Assembly: GCA_041741395.1 (NCBI GenBank)
Contig: JBGSKB010000112.1
Span: forward strand, 1-38,379
Length of the DNA: 38,379 nt
Direction of reading: 5' to 3'
From: Melioribacteraceae bacterium
GTDB lineage: Bacteria; Bacteroidota; Ignavibacteria; Ignavibacteriales; Melioribacteraceae
Shown: piece after piece, positions 1,746 to 27,112 of the stretch
How positions within the stretch are numbered: position 1 is the stretch's first letter
Layout: each line of letters opens with the position of its first letter
The notes under the pieces: model-generated
The model's database searches: none
The model's input: only the letters and a program-made list of their open reading frames with translations
Told to the model about the DNA's origin: nothing
Program-made: the position numbers and the translations under genes

Positions 1746-1771
1746 TTCCCCAAATATTTCTTTTTTTAATT

Positions 1772-6771: not shown

Positions 6772-6779
6772 AAATACGC

Positions 6780-9292: not shown

Positions 9293-11557
9293 TTATTTCA
9301 CCAATAACATTTTCTTTGTATTAGTATAATTTCCAGCTTTCAATGTATAAAAGTAAATTCCGCTTGTGAGCTTGCTAGAATTAAAGTTGTATGAATAAGC
9401 ACCGGCAGATTTATTTCCATTTTCTAATACAGATATAGTGTTTCCCAATACATCATATATTGTTAAACTTACATAACTAGATTTTGGTATTGAGTAACTT
9501 ATTACTGTTGATGGATTAAAAGGATTTGGATAATTCTGTCTCAATTCATATTCTGTCTGTATTGAGTTAGTTTTATTTACATCAGTTGGTGAAATAATAA
9601 TCCCTAACCTTACTTCCGAAAAATGTTTTGCATATATTGTAAAATAATTTTCATCAACTTCTTTTCTTATTCCATCAAAATCTGGATTTAATCCATTAAC
9701 AGTAAAAAATGGAGTTAATTGATCTATTTTGAAATTTAAAAGATCTAATAAAGTAGTTATGTTAACAATAGGTATTTTGATATATGCTTCCTTTCCGTTG
9801 TTAAAGTAATAATATTCTAATGGATTATGAGAACCGGATACCGACCCATTTATCTCAATGCTTAAGAAAAATAACTCTATTATACCTTGTGTATCTAGAT
9901 TTTTAACTTGAGCTTCATCACATATTTCTGATAAGTTAATAGAAATGTTAATGTCTTCATTTAAACTTCCCAAAGGAATTCCAAATTCAGTTCCAACAAT
10001 AGAATTATAAAATGGTTGATAATTAGAAAATGGAGATGGAAGTGTATAGGAAGGAAATACACAGCTTTGCCCCTCAAAAAAAGAACCTTTTTCTATTACT
10101 AATGGATTATGTGGATCATTACAATTTGGTAATACTATTTCATAACTTATTTTATAAGGGGGTATACATGGTCCATTTGCCAAAATCTGCTGCTTTGTTG
10201 GATTAACTAAATTACCAGATATATCATAAAAATCAACCACTATTCCTTTATCAAATAGAGGAAAAAGACCACAAAAACTAGTAAGTGAGATATTATTTTT
10301 GATCCTTAAGGAACTACCAATATAAGTTAAGTTTGCCAATCCATCTAAGTTAGCAAGCTTAGGATTGTTTGTAATCATTAAAGTTCTCGCAGATTTAAGA
10401 TTTTTTAAGCCATCAACATTTTCTAATGAAATATTATTACTTATATCTAAAAAATTTTGGTCAACTGATATAATATTATCTAGTCCATCTAAATTTTTTA
10501 ATGATGAATTACCAAAAATATTTATACCTAAAGCAGATGTGATATTTTTTAATCCCAAAATACTTTTAAGAGAAACATTTTGATATAATATAATACCAAT
10601 ACCATTTACAAAAGACGTAAGACCAATTAGTCCATCAAGATTTGTAAGTGAGGAATTATTACTAATTATTAAAGCAGAAGCACTTTTTAAGTTTGTGAGA
10701 GCATCTAAATTAACAAGTAATGGATTGAGACCAATTTCTATATTTATCACAGATTTAATATTTTTAAGTCCGTTAATATTATTGAGTACTTCATTGTCAC
10801 CAATAGCTATACTGCTATTGAAAGTGGTTATATTTACTAAACCATCCACATTAGTTAATGCTGAATTTCCCTGAATAATAATATCATTTTTAACTGAGGT
10901 TATTCCACTTAATCCATTTAAATTTGTAAGTGAGGAATTAGAAACAATGAATAGATGACCTCCGAGAGATGTAAGATTGCGTAATCCGTCCACATTTGTA
11001 AGTTTAGGATTAGATTGTAATACCAGGTCCCAATCAATAGAAGTAATACTTTTTAATCCCTTTAAATTTGTGAGAGAAGAATTATCATTAATCATAAGAT
11101 ATTTACTTACATGTGTAATTTTACTTAATCCATCTATATTAGTAAGTAAATTATTATTAATTACTTCAATATATCCACCAACAGAAGCAATATTACTTAA
11201 TTCATCTAAACTTGTTATTAACGAATTGCTTATTACAGTGAAATTCCCCCCCACATTTGTAATGTTATTTAATCCATTTAAATTTGTAAGCAAAGAATGT
11301 TCCGCAACATCAAACGATCCCCCAACGGATGTAATAGAAGACAGAGGGGTTAAATCTGTAATATCTCCTGAGATATCTTGGATTATGAGATTACCAGATA
11401 TTGAGGTAAAATTATTCGCACCAAAAGTATTAATTTCAGCTTGCGAAGTAAGTTTTACATCACCCGTATAAGTTTGAGCTTTTGCTGAAGTATTAAAAAA
11501 AACAAAAAACAAAGAAACAACATATAGAATATTCTTAATAAATCTAAAAGGTATCAT
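9293..11557 (-). CDS. Secreted leucine-rich-repeat (BspA/receptor-L-like) surface protein with T9SS C-terminal sorting domain
   Basis: Signal peptide (LFFVFFNTSAKAQT). About 17-18 tandem ~22-23-aa repeats of the form L.NL.GL.NIT.VGG.L.I..N..LT. C-terminal NYPNPFNPSTVISYSIP...GIYFYTLKAGNYTNTKKMLLVK resembles the type-A T9SS sorting domain. Confidence 0.8.
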   Translation of the reverse strand: MIPFRFIKNILYVVSLFFVFFNTSAKAQTYTGDVKLTSQAEINTFGANNFTSISGNLIIQDISGDITDLTPLSSITSVGGSFDVAEHSLLTNLNGLNNITNVGGNFTVISNSLITSLDELSNIASVGGYIEVINNNLLTNIDGLSKITHVSKYLMINDNSSLTNLKGLKSITSIDWDLVLQSNPKLTNVDGLRNLTSLGGHLFIVSNSSLTNLNGLSGITSVKNDIIIQGNSALTNVDGLVNITTFNSSIAIGDNEVLNNINGLKNIKSVINIEIGLNPLLVNLDALTNLKSASALIISNNSSLTNLDGLIGLTSFVNGIGIILYQNVSLKSILGLKNITSALGINIFGNSSLKNLDGLDNIISVDQNFLDISNNISLENVDGLKNLKSARTLMITNNPKLANLDGLANLTYIGSSLRIKNNISLTSFCGLFPLFDKGIVVDFYDISGNLVNPTKQQILANGPCIPPYKISYEIVLPNCNDPHNPLVIEKGSFFEGQSCVFPSYTLPSPFSNYQPFYNSIVGTEFGIPLGSLNEDINISINLSEICDEAQVKNLDTQGIIELFFLSIEINGSVSGSHNPLEYYYFNNGKEAYIKIPIVNITTLLDLLNFKIDQLTPFFTVNGLNPDFDGIRKEVDENYFTIYAKHFSEVRLGIIISPTDVNKTNSIQTEYELRQNYPNPFNPSTVISYSIPKSSYVSLTIYDVLGNTISVLENGNKSAGAYSYNFNSSKLTSGIYFYTLKAGNYTNTKKMLLVK

Positions 11558-11829: not shown

Positions 11830-11875
11830 AACTTTCTCGTTTATTTATAATTTGTAAAACGAATTTAATAATTGT
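11780..11875. repeat. 96-bp direct repeat, copy B
   Basis: Partner of 9117..9212, about 92 percent identical. Ends 21 nt before the decarboxylase ATG. Confidence 0.9.
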
Positions 11876-11895
11876 TTAAAAATAAAGAGAATTTT

Positions 11896-13335
11896 ATGTT
11901 TTCAGAAACGAAAGATATGCCTATTGAAGAGTTTAGAAAATATGGTCACGAATTAATTGATTTTATTGCAGATTACATAGAGAATATTGAGGAAAAATCG
12001 GTACTTGCTCAAATTCAACCCGGTGATGTGAAAGAAAAATTACCTCAAACTCCTCCGCAAAAAGGGGAAAAGATGGAAAGTATTTTAAATGATGTAAACG
12101 AAATTATTATGCCCGGAATGACGCATTGGAATCATCCAAATTTTATGGCATATTTTAACTCGACTGCCTCAACCCCAGCAATATTAGGTGATTTCTTAAG
12201 TTCAGCTTTTAACATTAACGGAATGATTTGGAAAACCGCTCCAGCTTCAACAGAATTAGAAGAAGTTGTATTAGATTGGTTTCGTCAGATGTTACAATTA
12301 CCGAAAAAGTTTTTTGGAATTATTTACGATTTGGCTTCAGTTAGTTCAATGCATGCAATTGCGGCAGCACGCGAACAAGCAAAATCAACATATCAAAATT
12401 ATGATATCACAAAACTTCGACTTTATTGTTCAGAACACGCTCATTCTTCAATTGAAAAAGGAGTTATTACTTTAGGGTTACCACTTTCTGCTGTTGTTAA
12501 AATTAAAACCGATGATCAATTTAGAATGATTACTTCAGAGCTTGAAGAAGAAATTATTAAAGATTTCAAAAATGATTTTTTGCCATTTTGCATTATTGCA
12601 ACAGTTGGGACTACATCAACAACAAGTATTGATCCGGTTGATGTAATTTCTCAAATTGCAAAAAAAAATAAATTGTGGCTTCATGTTGATGCTGCACATG
12701 CCGGATCCGCAGCAATAATTCCCGAGATAAGATCAATTTTAAGCGGAATTGAAGATGCAGATTCTATGGTTGTAAATCCGCATAAATGGCTTTTTGTCCC
12801 AATTGATTTAAGCGTATTATTTACTCAAAAACCAGAAGTAATAAAAAAAGCATTTTCAATTATTCCAGAATATTTAAAGACGGATGAAGAATCTAAAGTT
12901 ATAAATTATATGGATTATGGAATTCAGCTTGGGAGAAAATTCCGTTCCTTAAAATTGTGGTTTTTAATTCGCTACTTTGGAGTTGAAGGATTACAAAATA
13001 TTTTGCGTGAACATTTAAGATTAGGTGAACTTTTTGCTGATTTTATTGATCGACATCCAAACTTTGAAAGATTAGCACCAACTCCATTAAGTACAATATG
13101 TTTTAGAGCTGTTCCAAATAAAAAAATGAATGAAGAAGAATTAAATGATTTCAATAAAACATTGATGGATGAAATTAATAATTCTGGTAAGTTATTTTTA
13201 AGTCACACAAAACTTAACGGAAAATTTACGATACGAATAACAATTGGCGGAATAAGAACTGAAGAAAAACATATTTTGAATGCTTGGGAATTGATTCAAC
13301 TAAAATATAATTACTTAATAAAAATTAGGCGATAA
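11896..13335 (+). CDS. Pyridoxal-dependent group II decarboxylase (aromatic-L-amino-acid / tyrosine / tryptophan decarboxylase-like)
   Basis: Motifs HWNHPNFMAYFNS, TVGTTSTTSIDP, LHVDAAHAGSA and the PLP-lysine motif NPHKWLFVPIDLS. I prefer the ATG at 11896 (MFSETKDMPIEEFRKYGHELIDF) over the tracked TTG at 11872, which lies inside the duplicated repeat. Confidence 0.85.
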   Translation: MFSETKDMPIEEFRKYGHELIDFIADYIENIEEKSVLAQIQPGDVKEKLPQTPPQKGEKMESILNDVNEIIMPGMTHWNHPNFMAYFNSTASTPAILGDFLSSAFNINGMIWKTAPASTELEEVVLDWFRQMLQLPKKFFGIIYDLASVSSMHAIAAAREQAKSTYQNYDITKLRLYCSEHAHSSIEKGVITLGLPLSAVVKIKTDDQFRMITSELEEEIIKDFKNDFLPFCIIATVGTTSTTSIDPVDVISQIAKKNKLWLHVDAAHAGSAAIIPEIRSILSGIEDADSMVVNPHKWLFVPIDLSVLFTQKPEVIKKAFSIIPEYLKTDEESKVINYMDYGIQLGRKFRSLKLWFLIRYFGVEGLQNILREHLRLGELFADFIDRHPNFERLAPTPLSTICFRAVPNKKMNEEELNDFNKTLMDEINNSGKLFLSHTKLNGKFTIRITIGGIRTEEKHILNAWELIQLKYNYLIKIRR

Positions 13336-13336
13336 G

Positions 13337-13975
13337 ATGAATTCTTTGCTTGAATTTACCGTAATTGCTTTTACTTCTTTGTTTACAATGATGAATCCAC
13401 TTGGAGTAATACCAGTATATATTTCCTTAACTTCTCACTTGGATCCCAAAGTTGCAAAAAAAGTAGCGTACAAGGCAGTTTTAACAGCATTTATAATTTT
13501 AGTGCTTTTTGCAATAGCTGGTAAATTTATCTTTGATTTTTTTGCGATTACAATTCATAGTTTAAGAATTGTTGGCGGCATTATTTTTTTTATTGCCGGT
13601 TATGATATGTTACAAGCAAGATTGAATAGAACTAAATCACGAGAAGATGAACATTTTGAAGATGCTAAGGATATTGCAATTAGTCCGCTTGGAATTCCAT
13701 TAATTACCGGACCGGGAGCAATTACTGTTTCAATATTTTTGTTTAATGATGCGGTAGAAATTTCACAAAAAGTTATTTTGTTTTCTGTAATATTTTTATT
13801 GATGACTATAATGCTAGTATCATTATTAACAGGAAGAAAGTTAATGGAATTTCTTGGCGAAACGGGAAATAAAGTCTTAATGAGAATAATGGGATTGATA
13901 GTAATGGTTATTGCAGTTGAGTATATGTTTAGCGGATTGACACCGCTTGTAAGAAAAATGTTAAAGATTGAATAG
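13337..13975 (+). CDS. MarC-family (UPF0056) integral membrane protein
   Basis: Six-TM-like hydrophobic profile. N-terminal FTSLFTMMNPLGVIPVYISLT is typical of MarC/YhgN proteins. Starts 2 nt after the decarboxylase stop, so co-transcription is likely. Confidence 0.75.
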   Translation: MNSLLEFTVIAFTSLFTMMNPLGVIPVYISLTSHLDPKVAKKVAYKAVLTAFIILVLFAIAGKFIFDFFAITIHSLRIVGGIIFFIAGYDMLQARLNRTKSREDEHFEDAKDIAISPLGIPLITGPGAITVSIFLFNDAVEISQKVILFSVIFLLMTIMLVSLLTGRKLMEFLGETGNKVLMRIMGLIVMVIAVEYMFSGLTPLVRKMLKIE

Positions 13976-13982
13976 AAATTTC

Positions 13983-14015
13983 AAACATGCCATATTTCAA
14001 AAATACGGCATGTTT
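13983..14015. terminator. Hairpin between convergent genes (possible bidirectional terminator)
   Basis: AAACATGCC-15 nt-GGCATGTTT followed by ATTTT. Sits between the marC-like stop (13975) and the stop of the giant minus-strand ORF (14028). Confidence 0.5.
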
Positions 14016-14027
14016 ATTTTACACTTT

Positions 14028-17000
14028 TTATTTTTTAATCTTTTCTTTCAGTTTTTTAACAACAGCAAATTTAGCAGCGGCTAAAGTTTCTCTGTTTACT
14101 TTTTCAGTAATTCTTCCTCGAGTAATATCTTCCAAATTTATATAACCATTCATAAAAAGCAATTGAAGTATCATATTGTTTTCAATGGTCGATTTACTAT
14201 ATCCGTTTGCAATGTAAAGTTTATCGCAATCTTTATAAAACTCATCTGCAAAACTTTCATTGTTCGGAAGATCCATAAGCTGTTCGTAAGTTTCTGTATA
14301 TCCGCTTAATTCAACATTAATATTTGGTGTAACTAAAAGCGGACTGAATTCCTTTTTCTTTTCAACCGGACCAAAACCTTTAATTGATGTTAAATCAACA
14401 CTCACTTTTTCATTATCAATTCTTACAAACTCTGCCTTACGCATTTGTTCTAATTGGAATAAGAAAAAGTTATATCTGTTAACTTCAGCATTTTGTTTTT
14501 CATCAGAAAATATATGCGGATATTTTTCCTTAACAATATTTCTAATATAATTTTTATTCTTATTTATTTCCGGTTTAGAAATCCTAACTTCTTGAATCAT
14601 TTTTACCATATCTTGTGCGGCGGCTTGCGGACCGGAAATTTCTTTTCCTTTTCTTCCAAGGTCAGTTGATAATATTCCAAATTGAATATGTCTGCCGGCA
14701 CCTTTTTCTTTTTCACCGCCTTTTAAAATATTTACTAAATGTTTTTTCATTTCATACTGACTTTCTTCAGCAACAAAAGGCTGTCCAGCCGGAGTGCTTG
14801 CCAATGAATTAAAGAAACTGCTGAAAATTGTTCTATCAACCAAAATTTCCTTAATTGAAGATTCTTCAGATTTTGAATCAATACAGTTTGCAATAAATCT
14901 ATTTTTAATTATATCAAACTTTACCGAATCAATTTTATATTTAATTCCATCGGTGTGTTTGAAAATCTTTTTATCAAAAATTTTATTTACAACTTCTTCA
15001 ATATCAATTTTATCAATTAGTTTGTATGAAGAACACAAATAATATTTTCCGGTAAATTCATCAAGTTCCCAATCAAGAACATCATCAAGATAATTGCCGT
15101 GTTTGTCCATTATTTCAACAACATTTTTATCATTTGTGTATCTAAGTAAAGTTCTTTGGAAATTCGGATTATCTGAACTTGTTGCTTTCTCTTTTCTTTC
15201 GCCATGGGAATCGCGATAGAGTAAAAAGTTTTCCGGATTTTTATAAACTGTAATTCCGGCTTCTTGTCTGCCGAAGTTACTGGCTGTTAACATAATATCA
15301 ATTTTATACGGCATTTTTATATCGCACAAACCGCTAATTGTACTTCTAGAATTTAAATCTTCAACATTACTATCTGCGGCACTTTCAAAAAGTGAGTTGT
15401 AATATTTAATAAAATCGGGATCAAAATCCGTTACGCGAGAAAAATCACCTTCTTCAGTTCCAATTCCATATAAGTTACCTTCGGCATCCGGAAATACATA
15501 AAACATATCTCCGGCAATTAATTTTATAGATCTAATTCCGGGTAAATCTTTTTTAAGCCATTTCAACATCATGGCGGCAAGCATTTCAGATTTTCCAACT
15601 CCGCTATCGCCATCAACTTGAATTACAAATATACTTCCGTCTTCTTCTTCAATGGCAAATAATGAACCATGAATCGGCATTCCACCCATTTCTTTAACTT
15701 TCTCGTTCATCATTGTAAGCCAAGGTTTTTTGATGTTACCGAAATAATCGGTTTTCATCTTTAATGGTGTTACTAAAGTTTTGATATTTCCATTTGGACC
15801 TTTAATGTTGAAGTAACCAATTTGCGGATAAGAAATTACTTTTTCCGGTGCACCATAAAATAAAATTACATCGGGAATAAAATCTTTTAAATCATTTAAA
15901 CTAACTTCATCAGCTGAAATTAATCTGTGATTATCGGTTAAATATTTTATATAAGATTTTTGAATTATGTATAAAACCTTTACCAAACCGTGCTTAATAA
16001 TTTTGCATCTATAATCATCGGCATCCATATTTTTAACAAATTTTGATAAACGATGTTTGAAAAAAACTGCAGATGGTTTTGTATCTAAATTTTTGATGTA
16101 CTCATTTAAATCTTCATATTTTCTTTCTTCTTGAATATCGAGTTCTCTATCAACTTTGTGCATTGCATATTCACGTTTCTTGGAATCTGTAACAATTCTG
16201 GTATGAGTTTGAACGGGCTGTTCAGAAGCTATAACTCCGCATTTCTTCATTACCTCTTCAATCCATTTTAATGAACCATCATCAAATGAACTTAGAGTTT
16301 TATTGCTGAATTCATAATTTTGATGAAGTGTAATTCCATGTTGAATCATTTCATTTATGCTGGAATTCTGCTGTCTGTATTGGGTTTCTACAAATTTAAT
16401 TAATATGTGAGTGTATTTATCATAATATTCAGTTGAACGAGTTTTATTAATTATTTTTATAAAAAATAAAATTATATCACGAGAAACTTGATGAAGTTTT
16501 TCTTGAGTAATTTTCTCATTCTTGTATCTGTAAATTTCATTTATAATTTCATTTACTTCTGAATTTATAATTTCAAAAATAAATTCTTCGGTAAATAATT
16601 TAACTTCGCCATTTTCTTTTTGCGCTAATTTTGAAGATAGAAATTGTACTTTTTGATTGAGTATATTTAAGAAACTATCATCTTTTTTAAGCAAGTAGAA
16701 ATATAAAAGTTGTTCAGGTATGGTTAAATTTGGAACAAGAATTTTATTCAATAAAGTGCTGAGAATTATTCCATCTAATTTTTTGCTAAATATATGATCA
16801 TCTAATTTCTTAAATATTTTATCCAAAAATATGTTTGCGTATTGCTTTAGGTTAAATTCATGAACAGAAAATCCCACAACTTCATTAAACTTTTCCACAG
16901 AAGTTTTTAATAGCTGTTCATAATTTGGTTCAATAGATTCTTGCTCAAACGGCAAGTTGAAGTGAAGCAGTAATTCACGAATATATTTTCTTAGAACTAT

Positions 17001-20000
17001 ATTTGTTCCTTCAAGTTTTGCAATATCACCGGCAAAATCTTCAGAAGCATTTAAAGCCATAATTTTTACTTTTGAATCTGAAAAAAGAATTCTTTCCATT
17101 TCAATAAGTATTTCTTTCATTATTATGATTTCATCAGGGTCATCAAGCACATGATAATTTGGTTTGTAATCCATTTTATTATCAATGTACTTTTGTATTG
17201 TAGGCTTGCCAAATCTATTTATAACAGTATTAAAATCTAAATTTTTTATCTGCGGAATTGATTTGTAAATCTGCGGTAATAAATTTTCATAAATTTTAGA
17301 AAATGCTTTGCTCTTAATAAAGCTTCCTAAATCTCTGCATTCGCCGATATTTTCATAAAACTCAATAACAGAATTTTGTGATTTATTGAGTGAATTAATT
17401 GTAACGCCGCAATCTTTTGGAAATGAATGATAGAGCGTCATTATATTGCTGATTGTGAGACTGTTTTTCTTTTGCTTTTTAATATTCTTAATAATTTCAA
17501 AATCGCTTAAGATATTTTTGATAAAATCCTTATCGGTTGGCGATGAGAAAATTTCATCTAAAATATCATCAGTTCTTTTTTCTGAATTTTCAAGTTTCGC
17601 TTTTTCGTTTTTGAAAATTTTGAAATATTTCAGAACAATTCTTAAAGCATTTTCAAATTCTTTTTTAAAAACATCATAACTTTTTTCTGAACCTTGAACA
17701 TAATCACCAATTGAAAAACGTAAAAATCCGGTTTGATATGGAATTATAGCAATACCACGTTCTTGAGCTAATCTTTTTGTAAATTTTTCTAAATCTTGAT
17801 AGAAAAATTTATCAGTTAATTTTAGGTTAAATAAATAAGATCCATCCGAAGGAAGAACTTCCACAAAATTATTATCCGGTTCATCAAGAATTTTTGAAGC
17901 AACTTCTTTAGCAATTTTTAATCTTTTTATAGATTCTGCGCCAAAATTTTTATTTACTCTAAATTTATTTATTTCGGTTACAAGATGTTTTTGATAATAA
18001 CTGAAAAACGGTTCGCCTTTATATTTGAAATCATCCGGCAAATCTAAAACATCAAGTTTATCTAAAGACGTAAGTTCATCCAATAAAAACAAATGCAGTG
18101 GACTTCCTTCAAACGGAGAAAATCTTTTTGCGGATTTTCCTTGATTTGCAATTTCTTTTTTATCGTTAAAATTTTCTATTTCATCAGTAATATATTTTTC
18201 AATTCTTGCTTTAATTTTATAACGTGAAGCTTCTTTGGGAAGTTCTCGTTCCATTCTGTCTTTAATCTTTTTTGCAAGCTGAGCTGTTTCTAAAGTATTT
18301 ACAAGAATGTAAAGTGAGTTTGTATTTCCTTTTTCAATTCCGTTTTGTTCTTTTGCAAAATCAATTACATCTTTTCTTGCCGGAGTTGCAATTAACGAAC
18401 CCAATCTGCTTCCGGTTGCACCTAAATTTTTTGTCGTTGAAAGTGAAGATACTGCGCTGATATTTCCCATTGCGGAAATATTATTCATAATATATCTGGA
18501 AATAGTTCTCCACTTTGGTTCTTTCGGGTCTTCAATTTTTACCGAATCGCTGTAAGCTTCATCTAATAATAAAGTAATTTTACTATTGTTTAAAAACTTT
18601 AAAAGTTTTATTAATGAAACATTGTTAAAATCTGTGTAACCAGAAGGATTTGATGGATCATTAATTACTATTGTTAAATTTTCACAAAATCTATCCCACA
18701 AACTTCCGGTATCATCAAATAGCTGGAAGTTATTTTTCATTCTATTTAATCTAAGAAAAAGTCTTTCAAAATCGATTCTACCGCTTTCATCTAAACCAAT
18801 TTCTAAATCAAATGGATTTATATCAAATCTATCTTCCGGAAATAAATCTTTGTATTCCCAAGATGCTTCTTGGTTAAACAAAATGTACGGCATCAAAACA
18901 CGGTCGGATAAAATATCTCTAATTATCATCTGAACATCATCTGCAACAGAAGTAATTTCTAAATTGCTTAAGTTGCTAATAAATTCTTTGATAATTTCTT
19001 TTTCACTTTCAGATTTGGTTTCGTAAGATTCTTTAATTCCAAGATCAATTAATAAATTGTAAAATCTTCCGGTGTTATCTGATTCGTTTTGAACTTTGGT
19101 AATATATTCTTTATACTTTTCTAAAAATAAGTTCAATCCAAAATTTTTGTGGAAATGATTTTTTAAAGTTCGCTGATAATTATCTGGAATAATATCAATT
19201 ATGGTTTTGCATTTGCTGATAACTTTTGGATCGAGAGATTTTAATTTTCTTTGAAGCAGATAATTTCCGTAAGTTCTAATTTGACCTCGTCCTCCGCCCT
19301 CTATAATTGTTGCAATATTTACTTGTTCAATATTTGAATAAAAATAAGATTTTGTTCTTGATTCAAACTCGGCAATTAATGCTTTGTTAATTTTTTGAAG
19401 AGATTTAGGATTTTTGCAATTTTGAACAAGAACAATAAAATCTTTTAATTTTGTAAGTGAATATTTATCTCTAATAATCTGTTTAACAAAATTGTTGAAT
19501 TTAAATAAATACAAATTCTTCAAATGATTTTCGGTTTCACCTAATTGCTCAAGTTTGAATTGCTTTAATTCTTCATTGTAATCTGCAATTTTTTGTTCAG
19601 CGCAATTTCTGAATTTCTCTAAATTTTCATCATTTACTTTATCCAAAATCAATCGGAGGTTTAATTGACTATTAGCCAAGGCCCCAAGTTTTTTTGTATG
19701 AACTTTATTTAGTGTATTTATTATTTTATTATGAAACGCAAAGACTAAAGAAGTATTTGTACTTTTTGATTCGGGTGAATCATCAACTAAAACAATTCTT
19801 GTTAAATATGGAAACCATTTTTTATTATTGAAAATATTTTTTCTCATATTTTCAATTTTAACAATGAAAATACTTGTTGTGTCCAATTCTATTTGCTTAG
19901 ATAAATCTTCCGGATTTTTAAACTCAATAACTTTTACATCATTTTTATTAAATATTTCATTGGAAAACAATTCCACAACTGTATCTGAACTTCCGCCAAC

Positions 20001-20666
20001 AACGGTTTTAATAAGTCCATCTAAACCTTTAAAATTAACCGTAAGAAATGTTCTACTTAAAAAATCTTGTTTTTCTGCATTAGTTGTATAGTGAGAACTT
20101 TGAATAATCATCTGCTCAAGAACATCCATAAAATAATTCCATTGAGCTTCTTCAGTATCACCAACAATTCCAATTACATCTCTGTATTTTCTCAACTCAG
20201 CTACATCATCACCTAAAACAAATTTATACATTAAATCTAAATGAGATTCTGTAACCGGCGGAGTTCCAACCGAATAATCATGGGAATTTAGAATATTTAA
20301 AGTCTGTTCTTTCGTTTTGGAGTCAACAGCTTCCGTATCAATAAAATATTTTAATTTATTCTCGAAATTCTGTTTTTTTTCTCTATATTGAAAAGCTTTT
20401 GAATCTTCGTGAGGAAAAAGCATTAAAGAAACATCAATATAACCCGGAATTGATTCTTTCAATTCTAATAATAGTTTATCAATTTCTGCATTTTGTTTTG
20501 AGGGATCAACCGGTTCTTCATAGCAAATTCTAACAAAATTTTTAAGCAGATTTAGAGTATCATTGGGCATAAAGTTTTCTGCTCTTTCACCTAATGATTT
20601 AAAAAGATTTATATAATCATGTGCTTCAGATCTCAATTTGACCTTTGGTTTTTCTGTTATTTGCAT
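14028..20666 (-). CDS. Giant 2212-aa multidomain protein: PLP aminotransferase class I/II-like module plus HprK/PEPCK-like P-loop kinase module, remainder unassigned
   Basis: A single uninterrupted 6.6-kb ORF. Aminotransferase-fold motifs: IVINDPSNPSG (aa 669-676, nt 18639..18662), LLLDEAYSD, SSLSTTK(746)NLGATGSRLGSL (Lys codon nt 18429..18431), GIAIIPYQTGFLRFSIG. Kinase motifs: MPIHGSLFAIEEEDGSIFVIQVDGDSGVGKSE (Walker A nt 15588..15611), then LIAGDMFYVF and GIGTEEGDF. No signal peptide or TM helix seen. Confidence 0.8.
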   Translation of the reverse strand: MQITEKPKVKLRSEAHDYINLFKSLGERAENFMPNDTLNLLKNFVRICYEEPVDPSKQNAEIDKLLLELKESIPGYIDVSLMLFPHEDSKAFQYREKKQNFENKLKYFIDTEAVDSKTKEQTLNILNSHDYSVGTPPVTESHLDLMYKFVLGDDVAELRKYRDVIGIVGDTEEAQWNYFMDVLEQMIIQSSHYTTNAEKQDFLSRTFLTVNFKGLDGLIKTVVGGSSDTVVELFSNEIFNKNDVKVIEFKNPEDLSKQIELDTTSIFIVKIENMRKNIFNNKKWFPYLTRIVLVDDSPESKSTNTSLVFAFHNKIINTLNKVHTKKLGALANSQLNLRLILDKVNDENLEKFRNCAEQKIADYNEELKQFKLEQLGETENHLKNLYLFKFNNFVKQIIRDKYSLTKLKDFIVLVQNCKNPKSLQKINKALIAEFESRTKSYFYSNIEQVNIATIIEGGGRGQIRTYGNYLLQRKLKSLDPKVISKCKTIIDIIPDNYQRTLKNHFHKNFGLNLFLEKYKEYITKVQNESDNTGRFYNLLIDLGIKESYETKSESEKEIIKEFISNLSNLEITSVADDVQMIIRDILSDRVLMPYILFNQEASWEYKDLFPEDRFDINPFDLEIGLDESGRIDFERLFLRLNRMKNNFQLFDDTGSLWDRFCENLTIVINDPSNPSGYTDFNNVSLIKLLKFLNNSKITLLLDEAYSDSVKIEDPKEPKWRTISRYIMNNISAMGNISAVSSLSTTKNLGATGSRLGSLIATPARKDVIDFAKEQNGIEKGNTNSLYILVNTLETAQLAKKIKDRMERELPKEASRYKIKARIEKYITDEIENFNDKKEIANQGKSAKRFSPFEGSPLHLFLLDELTSLDKLDVLDLPDDFKYKGEPFFSYYQKHLVTEINKFRVNKNFGAESIKRLKIAKEVASKILDEPDNNFVEVLPSDGSYLFNLKLTDKFFYQDLEKFTKRLAQERGIAIIPYQTGFLRFSIGDYVQGSEKSYDVFKKEFENALRIVLKYFKIFKNEKAKLENSEKRTDDILDEIFSSPTDKDFIKNILSDFEIIKNIKKQKKNSLTISNIMTLYHSFPKDCGVTINSLNKSQNSVIEFYENIGECRDLGSFIKSKAFSKIYENLLPQIYKSIPQIKNLDFNTVINRFGKPTIQKYIDNKMDYKPNYHVLDDPDEIIIMKEILIEMERILFSDSKVKIMALNASEDFAGDIAKLEGTNIVLRKYIRELLLHFNLPFEQESIEPNYEQLLKTSVEKFNEVVGFSVHEFNLKQYANIFLDKIFKKLDDHIFSKKLDGIILSTLLNKILVPNLTIPEQLLYFYLLKKDDSFLNILNQKVQFLSSKLAQKENGEVKLFTEEFIFEIINSEVNEIINEIYRYKNEKITQEKLHQVSRDIILFFIKIINKTRSTEYYDKYTHILIKFVETQYRQQNSSINEMIQHGITLHQNYEFSNKTLSSFDDGSLKWIEEVMKKCGVIASEQPVQTHTRIVTDSKKREYAMHKVDRELDIQEERKYEDLNEYIKNLDTKPSAVFFKHRLSKFVKNMDADDYRCKIIKHGLVKVLYIIQKSYIKYLTDNHRLISADEVSLNDLKDFIPDVILFYGAPEKVISYPQIGYFNIKGPNGNIKTLVTPLKMKTDYFGNIKKPWLTMMNEKVKEMGGMPIHGSLFAIEEEDGSIFVIQVDGDSGVGKSEMLAAMMLKWLKKDLPGIRSIKLIAGDMFYVFPDAEGNLYGIGTEEGDFSRVTDFDPDFIKYYNSLFESAADSNVEDLNSRSTISGLCDIKMPYKIDIMLTASNFGRQEAGITVYKNPENFLLYRDSHGERKEKATSSDNPNFQRTLLRYTNDKNVVEIMDKHGNYLDDVLDWELDEFTGKYYLCSSYKLIDKIDIEEVVNKIFDKKIFKHTDGIKYKIDSVKFDIIKNRFIANCIDSKSEESSIKEILVDRTIFSSFFNSLASTPAGQPFVAEESQYEMKKHLVNILKGGEKEKGAGRHIQFGILSTDLGRKGKEISGPQAAAQDMVKMIQEVRISKPEINKNKNYIRNIVKEKYPHIFSDEKQNAEVNRYNFFLFQLEQMRKAEFVRIDNEKVSVDLTSIKGFGPVEKKKEFSPLLVTPNINVELSGYTETYEQLMDLPNNESFADEFYKDCDKLYIANGYSKSTIENNMILQLLFMNGYINLEDITRGRITEKVNRETLAAAKFAVVKKLKEKIKK

Positions 20667-20974
20667 ATTATTATAATATTATTAGTAAAAAGTTAATTTT
20701 TTGATTGTAAAGGTAGATAAAAGTTTTTTTCGTCATTAACTTTATTAAAAAAAACAGCTTATTATATACCTAAAAAGAGAAGGAAAAATTTGTAAAAATT
20801 ACTTCTTGATCTAAATATACTTAACTTTTTTATTTTTTTTTCGATACTAGGGGGATAAATTAAGAAAATATGATTCTTGTTAAAATCGAAAAAAGAATAA
20901 ATAATAAAATTTCCCCCCAAATTTTGTTTCTTTTTCATCATTTTGCATAAAAAGCAAAGGGTAGTAAAAAAGTA

Positions 20975-21003
20975 TTGACTTTAAAGTCAAAAAACCTTAT
21001 ATA
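20975..21003 (+). promoter_or_regulatory. Sigma-70-type promoter candidate for the sigma factor gene
   Basis: TTGACT (20975..20980), 17-nt spacer, TATATA (20998..21003), about 70 nt upstream of the start codon. The -35 element is half of a perfect 16-bp palindrome, TTGACTTTAAAGTCAA (20975..20990). Confidence 0.5.
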
Positions 21004-21076
21004 CTCTGGATTTTTTTCGCAAATAAGTTTCAGTGTCTTAATTTGAGAATTTCTATAAATTAACGGAGTACCTTAA

Positions 21077-21937
21077 TTGAAAATCACTAAACAAATAACC
21101 AACAGAGAAAGTCAATCGTTGGACAAATATTTCCAAGAAATTGGCAAAGTGGATCTTATTACCCCAGAGGAAGAGATCGATTTGGCAATTAAAATTAGAG
21201 AAGGGAATAAAGCTGCTTTAGATAAGCTTACAAAAGCTAATTTAAGGTTTGTGGTAAGTGTTGCTAAACAATACCAACATCAAGGATTACCACTAAGCGA
21301 TTTGATTAACGAAGGCAATCTTGGTTTGATTAAAGCTGCAAAGAAATTTGACGAAACGAGAGGATTTAAATTTATATCCTATGCCGTATGGTGGATTCGA
21401 CAATCAATTATGCAAGCTATCGCAGATCAATCAAGAATGGTTCGTTTACCTCTAAACAGAGTTGGAGAATTGTCCAAAATTTCTAAAGCTGCAAGCATGC
21501 TTGAACAAGAACTTGAAAGAAAACCAAGTGTTGAAGAAATTGCTCAAGAATTAGAAATGAATGTTGATGACGTTGCTTATACACTTCGTCATTCTGGAAG
21601 ACAAGTTTCTGTTGATGCTCCATTTTCACAAAGTGAAGATAGTAAAAGTAGTCTTTTAGATATTATGCCAAACGATGATCAACCTTCTCCAGATCATAGA
21701 TTAATGAGTGAATCATTAAGAAATGAAATTGAAAGAGTGCTTTCTACATTATCTGAAAAAGAAGCTACCGTAATTAAATTATATTTTGGATTTAATACTG
21801 AATATACAGCTACTTTGGAAGAAATTGGTGAAATATTAAACTTAACTCGTGAAAGAGTTAGACAAATTAAAGAGCAAGCTTTAAGAAAATTACGTCATGC
21901 TTCAAGAAGTAAAAAACTTAAAGTTTATCTTGGTTAA
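21077..21937 (+). CDS. rpoD: RNA polymerase sigma-70 family factor, compact primary-like (RpoD/SigA-type without region 1.1)
   Basis: Region 2 ([58 protein letters not shown]), region 3, and region 4 ([26 protein letters not shown]) are all present. TTG start with GGAG 8 nt upstream. The ~286-aa size matches primary sigma factors of the Bacteroidota type. Confidence 0.85.
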
Positions 21938-22567: not shown

Positions 22568-24049
22568 ATGAAATTTGCAGAATTTGAAGAATTATCAAAA
22601 AAATATAATGTAATTCCCGTTTATGAAATTATTACAGCAGATCTTCTTACTCCAGTTTTAGCGTACATTAAAATTAGAGAAAAAAATAAATTCTCTTTTT
22701 TGCTTGAATCCGTTGAAGGAATTGGAAGATTAGCCCGATATTCATTCATCGGAACTTCGCCAAAAGAAATTATACAATCAGAAAACAATCATATTACAAT
22801 TACAAAAAATGGAAAATCAAAAATATTAGAAATTGAGCTGTTAGATTATTTACACAATTTGGTTGAAAAATATAATCATCCGCAAATTGAGGAACTGCCC
22901 GATCTTACTGGGGGAATAGTTGGTTATTTGGGATTTGAAATAATTTCTAAAATTGAGCCGACAATTTTATTTAACCAAAATATTGCTCAAGATTTTCCCA
23001 ATTCTATTTTAGGATTGTTTGATACAATAATTGCATTTGATCATTACAAACATAGAATAATTTTAATAGCAAATGTTTTTGCCGATGAAATTCAAAATCC
23101 GAATTCAGCTTATGACGAAGCAATTTTAAGAATTTCCGAAATAAAGAAAAAAATTGTTCGGCCAATTTCTTATCAAAATAAATTTAAAGCAATTTCTGAA
23201 TTTGAAGGGAAAATTAATCTTGAAGAATTTTCATCAATAATTAAAAAAATAAAAAACAATATTTATAATGGAGACGTTTTCCAACTTGTAATTTCCGAAA
23301 GATTTCACCAAGAGTTTGAAGGCGATTTGCTCAATGTTTATCGGGCTTTGCGAATTATAAATCCATCTCCATATATGTATTTTATGGAAATTAATGAGGA
23401 CTTAACAATTATCGGAACATCGCCGGAAGATTTGCTAAAAGTAAAAGATGGAAACGCAACAATTTTGCCAATTGCAGGAACCCGAAGACGCGGTAAAACT
23501 AAAGAAGAAGATTCACAGTTAGAAGTTGAATTAATGAATGATCAAAAAGAAATTGCTGAACATACGATGCTTGTTGATCTTGCGCGAAACGATCTTGGAA
23601 GAGTTTGCGAACACAATTCGGTTTATGTTTCCGAAATGAAAAAAGTTCAAAGATTTTCTCATGTTATGCATATTGTTTCTCGTGTTGAAGGAAAATTAAG
23701 AAATAATAAAAATTGTATTGATGCTTTGAAAGCAAGTTTTCCAGCTGGAACAGTTTCCGGTGCGCCAAAAATTAGAGCAATTCAACTAATAAATGATTAC
23801 GAAAAAGTAAGACGCGGACCTTACGCCGGCTCGGTGGGATATATTGATTTTAATGGAAACTTAGATATGTGTATTGCAATTAGAACTTTTTTTGCAAATA
23901 AAAATATAATTTATTGGCAAGCCGGTGCTGGTATTGTTGCAGACAGCAAACCGGAATTAGAATTGAAAGAAATTCAAAATAAATCGGCAGTTTTAGTAAG
24001 TGCGTTAAAATTTGCAGAGGAAATTGATGAAAATATTAGTAATAGATAA
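22568..24049 (+). CDS. trpE: Anthranilate synthase component I
   Basis: FLLESVEGIGRLARYSFIG, IAGTRRRG, LVDLARNDLGRV, FPAGTVSGAPKIRA and GPYAGSVGY motifs. First gene after the attenuator. Confidence 0.95.
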   Translation: MKFAEFEELSKKYNVIPVYEIITADLLTPVLAYIKIREKNKFSFLLESVEGIGRLARYSFIGTSPKEIIQSENNHITITKNGKSKILEIELLDYLHNLVEKYNHPQIEELPDLTGGIVGYLGFEIISKIEPTILFNQNIAQDFPNSILGLFDTIIAFDHYKHRIILIANVFADEIQNPNSAYDEAILRISEIKKKIVRPISYQNKFKAISEFEGKINLEEFSSIIKKIKNNIYNGDVFQLVISERFHQEFEGDLLNVYRALRIINPSPYMYFMEINEDLTIIGTSPEDLLKVKDGNATILPIAGTRRRGKTKEEDSQLEVELMNDQKEIAEHTMLVDLARNDLGRVCEHNSVYVSEMKKVQRFSHVMHIVSRVEGKLRNNKNCIDALKASFPAGTVSGAPKIRAIQLINDYEKVRRGPYAGSVGYIDFNGNLDMCIAIRTFFANKNIIYWQAGAGIVADSKPELELKEIQNKSAVLVSALKFAEEIDENISNR

Positions 24050-24593
24050 TTACGATTCTTTTACATATAATCTTGTACAGCTTGTTGGAAAATTTACATG
24101 CGATATAAATGTTAAACGAAACGATGAAATAAATATTGATGAAATTAAAAAGTTAAATCCAGATAAAATTTTAATTTCTCCAGGTCCAGGCAGACCAGAA
24201 GATTCTAATATTTCGTTAGCTGTTATTCAAGAATTAGGAAAAACAATTCCCGTACTTGGTGTTTGTCTTTGTCACCAAGGAATAGGTTATTGTTTTGGAT
24301 CAACAATCACTAACGCTCCAAAACTTATGCATGGAAAAACATCTAAAGTTTTGCATGATGGAAAAACAATTTATAAAAACATTCCACAATATTTTGATGC
24401 GGGAAGATACCACTCACTGGTTATTGACAGATCAACACTTTCTGAAGATTTGGAAATTACTTCGTTTACAGAAGATGAAATAATTATGGGAGTTCGTCAT
24501 AAAAAATATCCAATTGAGGGAATCCAATTTCATCCAGAATCAATCTTAACTCCCGAGGGAGAAAATTTAATTAAAAATTGGTTGGAATTATGA
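24027..24593 (+). CDS. trpG: Anthranilate synthase component II (glutamine amidotransferase)
   Basis: MKILVIDNYDSFTYNLVQ, the catalytic-Cys motif PVLGVCLCHQ, and GIQFHPES. I prefer the ATG at 24027 (AGAGG upstream) over the tracked TTG at 24012. Overlaps the trpE 3' end. Confidence 0.9.
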   Translation: MKILVIDNYDSFTYNLVQLVGKFTCDINVKRNDEINIDEIKKLNPDKILISPGPGRPEDSNISLAVIQELGKTIPVLGVCLCHQGIGYCFGSTITNAPKLMHGKTSKVLHDGKTIYKNIPQYFDAGRYHSLVIDRSTLSEDLEITSFTEDEIIMGVRHKKYPIEGIQFHPESILTPEGENLIKNWLEL

Positions 24594-25609
24594 AAGAACA
24601 ATTAGAAAAAGTTATTGCCGGAGAAAGTTTAACATTTCAAGAAGCATACAATGTTATGTACTCAATAATGAGCGGAAACGAAAACAATTCTAAAATTGCA
24701 TCATTGCTTACAGCACTAAAAATAAAGGGCGAAACCTCGGAAGAAGTTGCCGGATTTGTAAAGGCAATGCGAGAAAAAGTTATAAATATTAGTTGTGAAA
24801 AAGAAAGAGTTATAGATGTTTGTGGAACCGGTGGCGACGGTTCGGGAACATTTAATATTTCTACAGCCGTTTCTTTTGTTGTAGCCGGCGCCGGGGTGAA
24901 TGTTGCAAAACATGGAAATCGTTCAATCTCAAGTAAAAGCGGAAGTTCTGATGTTTTACACGAACTTGGAGTTGATGTTCAGCTCAATCCCGAATTATCT
25001 GAAAAAGCATTAAATGAAATTGGAATTGCATTTTTGTTTGCACCGCTTTATCATCCGGCAATGAAGCATGTTGCGCCAATTAGAAAAGAGTTAGAGTTTA
25101 GATCAATCTTTAATATTCTTGGTCCGCTTACCAATCCAGCTGGAGTTAAACGTCAACTAATTGGAACTTTCAGTGATAAAACAGCACAACTTATGAGCGA
25201 AGCAATAAAATTATTGGAGATGGAAAAAGTAACATTTTTGTGTACAAATAATTCGTACGATGAAATAACTTTAACAGACTCCACAAAAGTTTATGAAGTA
25301 AATCAAGATCATTCAATGTATTACTATTCTTTAACTAATGAAAACTTTGGCTTCCCAAAAATAACTTTAGAAAATATTCAAGGTGGAAACGCAAAGGAAA
25401 ATGCAGAAATTATTTACGATATTTTTTCGAATAAAAATATCGGTCCGGCATACGATGTTGTGATTGCCAATGCAGCATTAGCTTTGAAGACTTCGGGAAT
25501 TTCGGATAATTTACTTGATTGTAAACAGATTGCTGAAGAATCAATAAAGTCTAGCGCAACATTAAATAAGTTAAATGAATTAAAAGAATTTGGTGAAAAA
25601 TACAAATGA
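24590..25609 (+). CDS. trpD: Anthranilate phosphoribosyltransferase
   Basis: CGTGGDGSGTFNISTA, NVAKHGNRSISSKSGSSDVL and NILGPLTNPA motifs. The ATG at 24590 forms an ATGA overlap with the trpG stop, so I prefer it over the tracked TTG at 24578. Confidence 0.9.
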   Translation: MKEQLEKVIAGESLTFQEAYNVMYSIMSGNENNSKIASLLTALKIKGETSEEVAGFVKAMREKVINISCEKERVIDVCGTGGDGSGTFNISTAVSFVVAGAGVNVAKHGNRSISSKSGSSDVLHELGVDVQLNPELSEKALNEIGIAFLFAPLYHPAMKHVAPIRKELEFRSIFNILGPLTNPAGVKRQLIGTFSDKTAQLMSEAIKLLEMEKVTFLCTNNSYDEITLTDSTKVYEVNQDHSMYYYSLTNENFGFPKITLENIQGGNAKENAEIIYDIFSNKNIGPAYDVVIANAALALKTSGISDNLLDCKQIAEESIKSSATLNKLNELKEFGEKYK

Positions 25610-27016: not shown

Positions 27017-27112
27017 CGCTGATTAAGCTGATTATCACTGTTAAATCCATTTTTTCTGTGTAATCTGTGTTTCATTGTCTTTAGAATTTTTAACGAATAT
27101 TGAGAAGAAAAT

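Follow-up and report, generated by a model that had tools for sequence, protein, structure and literature searches.

A conserved family of giant proteins joins an aminotransferase module to a divergent PEPCK-like module

The window analyzed here, a stretch of 38 379 nt from a Melioribacteraceae bacterium, encodes a protein of 2212 amino acids (Table 1) and raises the question of which reaction, if any, the two enzyme-like parts of this single chain may carry out together. An earlier note, made from the sequence alone, had described an orphan in which an aminotransferase fold is joined to a HprK/PEPCK-like kinase fold, and had proposed a channelled transamination and phosphorylation or, as an alternative, a regulatory kinase with a PLP-like sensor domain. 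The single unbroken reading frame was found as described, and all motifs are located as quoted: IVINDPSNPSG at residue 666, LLLDEAYSD at 699, SSLSTTK(746)NLGATGSRLG at 740 and GIAIIPYQTGFLRFSIG at 971 in the aminotransferase part, and IHGSLFAI at 1665, GSIFVIQVDGDSGVGKSE at 1677, LIAGDM at 1716 and GIGTEEGDF at 1734 in the kinase part.

Table 1. Features of the giant gene and its flanks (positions in the window; Pck, E. coli PEPCK)
Feature	Position	Strand	Remarks
Complete ORF, 2212 aa	14028..20666	-	257 kDa, pI 6.3, ATG start, uninterrupted
N-terminal region, aa 1-444	19335..20666	-	helices and a five-stranded alpha/beta domain (aa ~219-310)
Class I/II (fold-type I) PLP aminotransferase module, aa ~445-1010	17637..19334	-	PF00155, Foldseek, ACC synthase profile match
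NDPSNPSG (aa 669-676), with N673	18639..18662	-	class I 'NPxNPTG' motif; invariant
DEAY (D702...Y705)	18552..18563	-	counterpart of aminotransferase D222/Y225 PLP-binding motif; invariant
K746 codon	18429..18431	-	predicted PLP Schiff-base lysine; invariant
Linker region, aa 1011-1435	16362..17636	-	predicted helical
PEPCK-like module, aa ~1436-1971	14754..16361	-	Foldseek, hhalign, Pfam PEPCK_ATP in giants
YFGNIKK (aa 1641-1647)	15726..15746	-	aligned to Pck Y207-GGEM-K212-K213; invariant
Walker A/kinase-1a loop GDSGVGKSE (aa 1686-1694)	15585..15611	-	aligned to Pck GLSGTGKTT (S250, K254, T255); invariant
G1719-D1720-M1721	15504..15512	-	aligned to Pck D268-D269 region; register ambiguous by one residue
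N1772-S-R1774	15345..15353	-	aligned to Pck N331-T-R333, substrate-binding NxR motif; invariant
C-terminal region, aa 1972-2212	14031..14753	-	mostly helical
16-bp-stem hairpin	13982..14016	-	directly past the stop codon, between convergent genes
AT-rich intergenic region, 410 bp	20667..21076	.	common to the giant gene and a divergent sigma-70 gene (21077-21937)

The label 'orphan' turned out to be wrong: the gene is real and belongs to a conserved, uncharacterised family with more than 336 homologues. The best 120 of these are 58–98% identical and essentially all of full length (about 2170–2270 aa; one partial sequence of 1918 aa), and the N-terminus MQxxGKPK is kept among homologues. As many as 272 GTDB species genomes carry relatives, spread over Bacteroidota, Ignavibacteriota and Calditrichota, including cultured Anaerophaga, Thermophagus and Carboxylicivirga as well as Alistipes/Odoribacter MAGs. 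The fusion is kept at near-constant length in these 272 genomes and in second-tier giants at ~30% identity. No gene neighbourhood was found to be conserved among 81 loci, which is consistent with the monocistronic reading proposed before; the neighbourhoods offer no hint of a pathway. Both the upstream region and the 3' hairpin named in the earlier note are present. The hairpin is likely a bidirectional terminator shared by the two convergent genes, and the intergenic region is presumably a promoter region; no promoter was identified within these 410 bp. The immediate convergent neighbour encodes a MarC membrane protein (13337–13975), and the PLP enzyme that had been assigned to this place, a PLP decarboxylase, is encoded one gene further on (11872–13335). 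The giant protein is cytoplasmic; we observed neither a transmembrane segment nor a signal peptide (maximal 19-residue Kyte–Doolittle mean of 1.29), as had been claimed.

The aminotransferase fold was borne out by profile and structure searches. Pfam PF00155 matched the window protein with an E-value of 6.7e-10 (39.1 bits, cut-off 19.7) and was detected in 17 of 18 giants, while a Foldseek search with an AF2 model of aa 1–1100 (pLDDT 81, pTM 0.79) yielded fold-type I PLP enzymes only; in addition, the module profile matched ACC synthase 1iax (E 7.7e-5). Among the nearest structures are Asp/Tyr/Phe aminotransferase, AlaAT, ACC synthase and HisC, a mixed set, and the sequence gives no substrate specificity. 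K746 lies opposite the lysine of the ACC synthase motif SLSKDMGLPGFRVG in the HMMER alignment, and R754 is aligned with the phosphate-binding arginine of that enzyme. No substitution of G457–G459, R460, N669, N673, D702, Y705, K746, R754 or R983 occurs among 37 family members or among the 18 giants at 20–25% identity; these giants also keep the GGGR loop. Judged by these residues, the module is catalytically intact. It shares its fold and the motifs NPxNPxG, DEAY, SxxK...GxR and C-terminal GxxR with class I PLP enzymes (ACC synthase 1iax, AlaAT 3ihj/3tcm, S. aureus Sar2028 2x5f, tyrosine aminotransferase 3dyd). Unlike these enzymes, it is part of a multidomain chain and contains two mainly helical insertions of ~115–130 residues each (aa ~475–590 and ~800–930) in addition to a 444-aa N-terminal extension.

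For the second module the assignment to the HprK/PEPCK superfamily stood, but the emphasis on HprK did not, as the module is PEPCK-like: in a Foldseek search against the PDB the best 50 matches were PEPCK throughout (E-values down to 7e-6, probability 1.00), with 340–420 aligned columns and ~12% identity to the solved structures. A module profile compared with E. coli Pck by hhalign gave an E-value of 5e-6 across Pck 148–412, and a second profile gave 1e-4 with a score of 43.7, about 8.7 SD above the scores of 60 shuffles (17.7 ± 3.0, maximum 27.1). The outer boundaries at aa ~1436 and ~1971 come from a low-stringency alignment that covers Pck 8–540. The similarity, which had been placed at aa ~1650–1760, actually spans about 400–540 residues. 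Pfam PEPCK_ATP matched 9 of 18 giants (best E 4.2e-5), Hpr_kinase_C none of the 18; the window protein itself is below the PEPCK_ATP threshold (16 bits against 26.5). The following correspondences between Pck and the giant are invariant: Y207 to Y1641, K212/K213 to K1646/K1647, H232 to H1666, S250 to S1688, K254 to K1692, T255 to S1693, D268 or D269 to D1720, K288 to R1744, and N331/R333 to N1772/R1774. In Pck, Y207 is the CO2/substrate-site tyrosine, and the K212/K213 pair supplies the Mn-binding lysine. The presence of these substrate- and Mn-site motifs (YxGxxKK, His, NxR) argues for a small-molecule reaction of the PEPCK type rather than for a protein kinase.

This part of the chain is thus a complete, very divergent PEPCK-type module. 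In overall fold, in size (about 540 aa) and in the order of its motifs (YxGxxKK, His, the GxSGxGK[ST] P-loop, Asp, an EGG-type segment with a basic end, NxR) it resembles the ATP- and GTP-dependent PEPCKs (EC 4.1.1.49/4.1.1.32; E. coli Pck, rat cPEPCK, C. glutamicum PEPCK 2zci). It differs in its low identity, in its fusion to an aminotransferase within a 2212-aa chain, in the loss of one Asp of the D268/D269 pair and at R65, the oxaloacetate/PEP-carboxylate-binding arginine of E. coli, where the alignments place D1494 or E1482 and no counterpart arginine; the invariant R1490 and R1498 lie nearby. PPi-dependent PEPCK (~130 kDa; Propionibacterium, Entamoeba) is a much enlarged, sequence-divergent class of PEPCK. 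It has no InterPro family (PPO-node review). This class is a precedent for an enlarged PEPCK that escapes family databases, but it uses PPi and has no aminotransferase module, whereas the giant keeps a canonical nucleotide P-loop; it was not among the best 50 Foldseek matches.

The closest sequence relatives of the module are not canonical PEPCKs, but uncharacterised proteins of 545–600 aa (e.g. Thermotogota HOO32190.1; P0209–P0269) with ~30% identity (E 1e-10 to 1e-16), annotated as hypothetical or mis-named EcfA2. They share the motifs DYFGYxKKMxLTLHN, LPIHGA, GDSGAGKSE, DDMG, GTEIGAFVRLDDL, NARV and AKGTT with the giants. In contrast to the giants they keep both Asp residues (DDM) and have no aminotransferase module. 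Their gene contexts vary. One of them, P0209, is encoded in a sugar-nucleotide/DegT aminotransferase operon, a hint that the PEPCK-like clade may not act on oxaloacetate or PEP.

Taken together, we favour, with a probability of about 45%, a bifunctional enzyme that would couple aspartate/oxaloacetate transamination to a nucleotide-dependent interconversion of oxaloacetate and PEP. Oxaloacetate is the product of aspartate aminotransferase and the substrate of PEPCK. The aminotransferase module would interconvert an amino acid and its 2-oxo acid; the most plausible pair is aspartate and oxaloacetate, partnered by glutamate/2-oxoglutarate. The PEPCK-like module would catalyze OAA + NTP <-> PEP + CO2 + NDP, so that the labile oxaloacetate would be made and used on one polypeptide. 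What we infer here is the activity of both modules, their substrates and nucleotide, the direction of the reactions and any channelling; the channelled step of the earlier note, sharpened to aspartate, oxaloacetate and PEP, is our leading proposal. The claim of two small-molecule-type catalytic folds in one chain is supported by the conservation of both residue sets, K746 and the Walker A Lys/Ser being invariant in the 37 family members and in the giants at 20–25% identity. Such a fusion points to a so far unstudied enzyme that would connect amino-acid metabolism with that of PEP/oxaloacetate. Neither a study of the family nor a characterised enzyme of this architecture was found in literature searches and in one comprehensive review, in agreement with the earlier note. 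Several observations count against our reading: the mixed structural neighbours, the sub-threshold PEPCK_ATP score, the identity of only ~12% to solved PEPCKs, the unplaced R65 counterpart, the single Asp, the uninformative neighbourhoods, the operon of P0209, the conservation of PLP-binding residues in non-catalytic sensor domains as well, and ~1100 residues to which no role is assigned.

Both modules may instead act in one pathway through an intermediate other than oxaloacetate, which we consider unlikely but the most serious alternative. The aminotransferase part would then use another 2-oxo acid (e.g. alanine-derived pyruvate, or an oxo acid that is sulfonated or aromatic), and the PEPCK-like part would (de)phosphorylate an enolate or convert PEP to pyruvate like pyruvate kinase. 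The extreme divergence of the PEPCK-like clade, the unplaced R65 counterpart, AlaAT and ACC synthase among the nearest structures and the operon of P0209 would fit such a pathway; the invariant counterparts of Y207, K212, K213, H232, N331 and R333, which form the OAA/CO2/Mn site of PEPCK, find their simplest explanation in chemistry of the PEPCK type with a substrate that resembles OAA or PEP. Somewhat less probable still is a PLP-based ligand sensor that controls the PEPCK-like enzyme allosterically without turnover of its own. PLP-binding residues are also kept in non-catalytic aminotransferase-fold sensors such as GabR/MocR, in which the class I fold likewise keeps its PLP lysine and is fused to a second functional module, a wHTH DNA-binding domain; the large extra regions of the giant could carry allostery, and its PEPCK-like core is more conserved than its aminotransferase module. 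However, the full catalytic constellation, including the alpha-carboxylate arginine R983, N673 and Y705, is invariant even in the distant giants, and the partner here is an enzyme module, with no DNA-binding or other output domain detected.

That the C-terminal module is a HprK/P-like protein serine kinase/phosphorylase, possibly with the aminotransferase module as its target, appears very improbable. HprK/P belongs to the same structural superfamily as the nucleotide-binding domain of PEPCK, and GDSGVGKSE is the Walker A signature of the HprK type, GxSGxGKSE; moreover, the stand-alone family, used as a profile, weakly matches HprK structures (1jb1, E 0.024) and one member matches Hpr_kinase_C below threshold. 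Against this, no HprK chain is among the best 50 Foldseek matches, Hpr_kinase_C matches neither the window protein nor any of the 18 giants, nine of which match PEPCK_ATP, the YxGxxKK and NxR motifs specific to PEPCK are invariant, and the module is PEPCK-sized (~400–540 aa), while the Pfam model of the HprK C-domain has 171 positions. Least probable of all is a structural or scaffolding protein with degenerate, inactive domains: no catalytic domain can be recognised in roughly half of the chain, but both catalytic sets stay invariant even between far-diverged members and conservation is strongest around the active sites, which argues against degeneration.

The remaining helical and alpha/beta regions are probably structural or regulatory and would join both modules. 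For aa 1–444 (AF2 pLDDT mostly 80–92) a Pfam search gave no match or family assignment, and hhalign revealed no similarity to the aminotransferase module. Between the two modules the chain is predicted to be helical, as the earlier note had it. In the C-terminal region LSTDLGRKGKEISGPQAAA (aa ~1999–2017) resembles TxLGIxGxExxGPxxAA, the C-terminal consensus of the stand-alone PEPCK-like relatives, a likeness seen by eye between motifs that MAFFT leaves unaligned. Along the chain, mean identity to the window protein is lowest at aa 1250–1400 (29–37%), reaches 86% at aa 301–350 and is highest overall in the PEPCK-like core at aa ~1590–1850 (78–86%), the most conserved part of the giant.

The 2212-aa window protein is encoded by a single unbroken ORF on the minus strand, with a predicted mass of 257 kDa and a pI of 6.3. 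The eight motifs that the earlier note had quoted from it were all found at the residues assigned to them, and its statement that transmembrane helices and a signal peptide are lacking agrees with our observation that no hydrophobic segment of the product is long enough for either. Overall its observation was largely confirmed, apart from the emphasis on HprK and the word 'orphan'. For the latter we found the opposite: a word-indexed search returned more than 336 homologues, and relatives were encoded in 272 species genomes when a single genome of each GTDB species was scanned. Of the more than 336 homologues, the best 120 are 58-98% identical and practically all full length, at about 2170-2270 aa with one partial of 1918 aa. 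Homologues come from Ignavibacteriota/Melioribacteraceae, Bacteroidales, Calditrichota and a small number of MAGs with other labels. Database names for them go no further than 'aminotransferase class I/II-fold PLP-dependent enzyme' or 'hypothetical protein', and metabolic reconstructions therefore miss this giant. A relative is carried by the cultured Anaerophaga thermohalophila, Thermophagus xiamenensis and Carboxylicivirga fragile and by MAGs of Draconibacterium, Alistipes, Odoribacter, Rikenellaceae, Lentimicrobiaceae and Salinivirgaceae. Family members from at least three phyla are 52-98% identical over 2200 residues. The whole chain is highly conserved, with a peak of 78-86% at aa 1600-1860 and a minimum of about 30% in aa 1250-1400 only. 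The gene is real, strongly constrained and widely distributed. Querying exhaustively by HMMER with aa 1101-2212, we observed three tiers of relatives: (i) the core family of giants; (ii) proteins of 2000-2200 aa at about 30% identity, the majority of them with PF00155 as well (three of four in one scan; 17 of 18 giants in another); and (iii) stand-alone proteins of 545-600 aa, which match aa ~1530-1832 only.

The aminotransferase fold proposed in the earlier note was recovered by both sequence and structure. PF00155 matches aa 664-808 with 39.1 bits (Pfam cut-off 19.7, E 6.7e-10), and the AF2 model of aa 1-1100 (pLDDT 81, pTM 0.79) retrieved 2x5f, 3ihj, 3piu, 3tcm and others in Foldseek with E-values of 1e-5 to 1e-4 and a probability of 1.00; these structural matches are class I aminotransferases, ACC synthase, AlaAT and HisC. 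With the family profile, tomato ACC synthase was aligned to aa 666-797 (E 7.7e-5), which places K746 opposite the Lys of SLSKDMGLPGFRVG and R754 opposite its Arg. K746, in an SxxK context, is the predicted Schiff-base lysine and R754 the predicted phosphate-binding arginine, and in the HMMER alignment the class I motif positions are matched by D702 (pyridine N), Y705 and N673 (O3') and the Gly-rich phosphate loop G457-G459/R460. None of these residues, nor N669 or R983, varies in 37 family members or in 18 giants whose shared identity is only 20-25%. R983 (GFLRFS) lies near aa 936-979, where NCBIfam aminotransferase models align weakly, and is a candidate equivalent of AspAT R386, the arginine contacting the alpha-carboxylate of the substrate. 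The core fold is interrupted twice by helical insertions (aa ~475-590 and ~800-930), and a 444-aa region without family assignment precedes it.

For the second half of the chain, the HprK/PEPCK superfamily named in the earlier note was right, but the module is PEPCK-like and, at aa ~1436-1971, much larger than had been stated. The AF2 model of aa 1101-2212 (pLDDT 75) gave PEPCK for all of its best 50 Foldseek matches in the PDB, with 340-420 aligned columns, E-values down to 7e-6 and a probability of 1.00. When the PDB was searched by sequence alone, the full-length protein and its profile retrieved only aminotransferases; it took the kinase-module profile (E 0.009), hhalign and Foldseek to reveal PEPCK. 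A profile of the module and its stand-alone relatives matches T. thermophilus ATP-PEPCK over an aligned stretch YAGEIKKSIFTVMN...PMH...GLSGTGK. By hhalign, one module profile matched E. coli PEPCK (Pck) with E 5e-6 over Pck 148-412, and an independent profile of the giants reached E 1e-4 with a score of 43.7, compared to 17.7 +/- 3.0 for 60 shuffles; a low-stringency alignment covered Pck 8-540, opposite aa 1436-1971 of the giant. In the window protein itself PF01293 (PEPCK_ATP) scored 16.0 bits, below its cut-off of 26.5 (E 0.0053), and NCBIfam PRK09344 gave E 0.055, while 9 of 18 distant giants match PEPCK_ATP with a best E of 4.2e-5 (curated threshold status unrecorded). Residues were mapped after the numbering of E. 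coli Pck had been checked (see the table). The kinase-1a P-loop GxSGxGK[TS], GDSGVGKSE at aa 1686-1694, aligns with GLSGTGKTT of Pck and is invariant. An equivalent of Pck R65, the N-domain arginine for the OAA/PEP carboxylate, was not placed by three alignments to Pck: E1482 or D1494 stands opposite in the low-stringency alignments, with the invariant R1490 and R1498 within a few residues. Two invariant segments of the PEPCK-like core, about 85% conserved, have a pLDDT below 50, namely aa ~1740-1780 (window ~15327-15449) and ~1819-1833 (~15168-15212). PEPCK has mobile lid loops, and we read these segments as probable mobile active-site loops or lids that would become ordered on substrate binding.

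Features of the window and residues of the PEPCK-like module aligned to E. coli Pck
Feature	Position	Strand	Description
Fer4 and pyridine-nucleotide-disulphide oxidoreductase	414-1745		Before the multihaem cytochromes
Adjacent multihaem c-type cytochromes	1772-3322, 3301-6771	+	516 and 1156 aa, MtrC/MtrF-like domains
536-aa ORF	6780-8390		After the multihaem cytochromes; no Pfam match
754-aa protein	9293-11557	-	Sole recognisable feature a T9SS Por_Secre_tail sorting domain
Hairpin	13982-14016		16-bp stem; downstream, between the giant ORF and the convergent MarC gene
Giant ORF	14028-20666	-	2212 aa
Upstream spacer			410 bp, AT-rich; between the giant gene and the divergent sigma-70 gene
Sigma-70	21077-21937	+	286 aa, divergent from the giant gene; regions 1.2, 2, 3 and 4, without region 1.1
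trpE-G-D-C-F-B-A	22568-29109	+	Complete tryptophan biosynthesis operon, downstream of the sigma factor gene
779-aa protein	33053-35392	+	CotH kinase, lamin-tail and type IX secretion C-terminal sorting domains
PPK2 polyphosphate kinase	35455-36279		Next after the CotH-type protein
Pck Y207	Y1641		Aligned, invariant; substrate/CO2-site residue of Pck
Pck K212 / K213	K1646 / K1647		Aligned, invariant; K212 substrate/CO2-site residue, K213 Mn2+ ligand in Pck
Pck H232	H1666		Aligned, invariant; Mn2+ ligand in Pck
Pck S250	S1688		Aligned, invariant
Pck K254	K1692		Aligned, invariant
Pck T255	S1693		Aligned, invariant
Pck D268 or D269	D1720		Invariant; register-dependent, other position Gly or Met; only one Asp of the DD pair kept; D269 Mn2+ ligand in Pck
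Pck K288	R1744		Aligned, invariant
Pck N331 / R333	N1772 / R1774		Aligned, invariant; substrate/CO2-site residues of Pck

In one chain an aminotransferase module is joined to a PEPCK-type module, with conservation of both catalytic residue sets, and the giant is a new domain architecture made from known folds, including a new divergent PEPCK-like lineage. The literature searched, among it a review that covers the PEP-pyruvate-oxaloacetate node comprehensively, contains no account of an aminotransferase-PEPCK fusion or of DUF4914. Both modules are probably enzymes, and we infer that both are active and share an intermediate. Since oxaloacetate is the product of aspartate aminotransferase and the substrate of PEPCK, an Asp/OAA/PEP coupling is the simplest mechanism: the aminotransferase site would catalyze Asp + 2-oxoglutarate <-> OAA + Glu, and the PEPCK-like site, coupled to it, OAA + NTP <-> PEP + CO2 + NDP, with direction and nucleotide left unspecified. 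We hold this substrate assignment tentatively, at somewhat less than even odds. The complete reading, a 'transaminating PEP carboxykinase' (probability roughly 0.3), is that the 257-kDa chain would turn Asp, 2-oxoglutarate and NTP into PEP, CO2, glutamate and NDP, or the reverse, with oxaloacetate passed between the aminotransferase site and a fourth, highly divergent PEPCK lineage, as an unrecognised enzyme class of central metabolism. In a still more novel variant the PEPCK-like site would make the phosphoenol derivative of another 2-oxo acid.

That two active modules exchange a different oxo acid is possible and in our view rather doubtful, and it is unlikely that the aminotransferase fold serves as a PLP sensor. 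An HprK-like protein kinase would be consistent with the Walker A sequence, in which direct reading matches GDSGVGKSE of the giant to the GxSGxGKSE of HPr kinase/phosphorylase, and one stand-alone relative scored 22.7 bits against Hpr_kinase_C (PF07475), under the threshold of 33.3. However, this profile matched neither the window protein at E <= 1 nor any of the 18 giants at E <= 0.05, and no HprK chain occurs among the top 50 Foldseek matches. HprK membership was rejected on these two grounds; no HPr gene was found in the window neighbourhood examined, and we consider such a kinase highly improbable. A degenerate scaffold, in which the folds would have lost catalysis, is contradicted by the conservation of both catalytic residue sets and deserves hardly any credence. 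Should the transaminating PEP carboxykinase be correct, it would be a new enzyme at the PEP-pyruvate-oxaloacetate node of anaerobic Bacteroidota (including the Alistipes/Odoribacter MAGs), Ignavibacteriota and Calditrichota. Provided that the two modules are active, the giants would be an undescribed enzyme architecture where carbon and nitrogen metabolism meet, present in cultivable strains as well as in those MAGs, and together with the stand-alone 545-600-aa family they would define a new, very divergent PEPCK-like lineage that current family databases do not recognise.

About 1100 residues lie outside the two modules. Pfam and NCBIfam searches of aa 1-440, aa 1010-1509 and the C-terminus found no credible family. 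The look-alike motifs VVGGSSDT, VDDSPES and HTKKLG had prompted the idea that the N-terminal region is a degenerate second aminotransferase half, forming an intramolecular pseudo-dimer; hhalign of the N-terminal against the aminotransferase profile gave a match probability of 0.2% over 6 columns, and the sequence lends the idea no support. No other pair of segments of the giant was found to be related by hhalign.

We clustered the flanking ORFs of 81 loci and observed no neighbour family in more than five of them; three individually examined gene contexts likewise had no conserved neighbourhood, and because of this we regard the giant gene as standing alone. Only 3-4 of the 81 loci repeat the sigma-70, MarC and PLP-decarboxylase neighbours, and only four the pairing with sigma-70. 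The convergent PLP enzyme of the earlier note exists, as a PLP-dependent decarboxylase, but lies one gene beyond MarC, which is the convergent gene. In the 410-bp upstream region we found no Bacteroidetes-type -7 motif (TAnnTTTG), and sigma-70-type promoter matches were no more frequent than in shuffles. The short sigma-70 is similar to the compact primary sigma factor found in the Bacteroidota group. At the locus of P0134, a distant second-tier giant about 25% identical overall, the giant gene separates PPDK and glutamate dehydrogenase genes from an arginine-biosynthesis operon; these amino-acid and PEP-metabolism surroundings are suggestive and a single occurrence.

The stand-alone PEPCK/HprK-like proteins (P0209-P0269; loci L086-L089) are uncharacterised; HOO32190.1 is an example from Thermotogota, where the family is labelled hypothetical or mis-named EcfA2. 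Strongly conserved among them are DYFGYxKKMxLTLHN, LPIHGA, GDSGAGKSE, DDMG, NARV, AKGTT and FANPFGP. The gene of one member, P0209 (L089, 7001-8764), overlaps the end of a DegT aminotransferase/epimerase/NTP-transferase sugar-nucleotide operon, and another member is located near 2-oxoacid:ferredoxin oxidoreductase genes. Elsewhere in the window, the genes at 414-8390 may be an extracellular electron-transfer cluster of an Ignavibacteria-like genome, and the 779-aa protein looks like a secreted CotH-type kinase.
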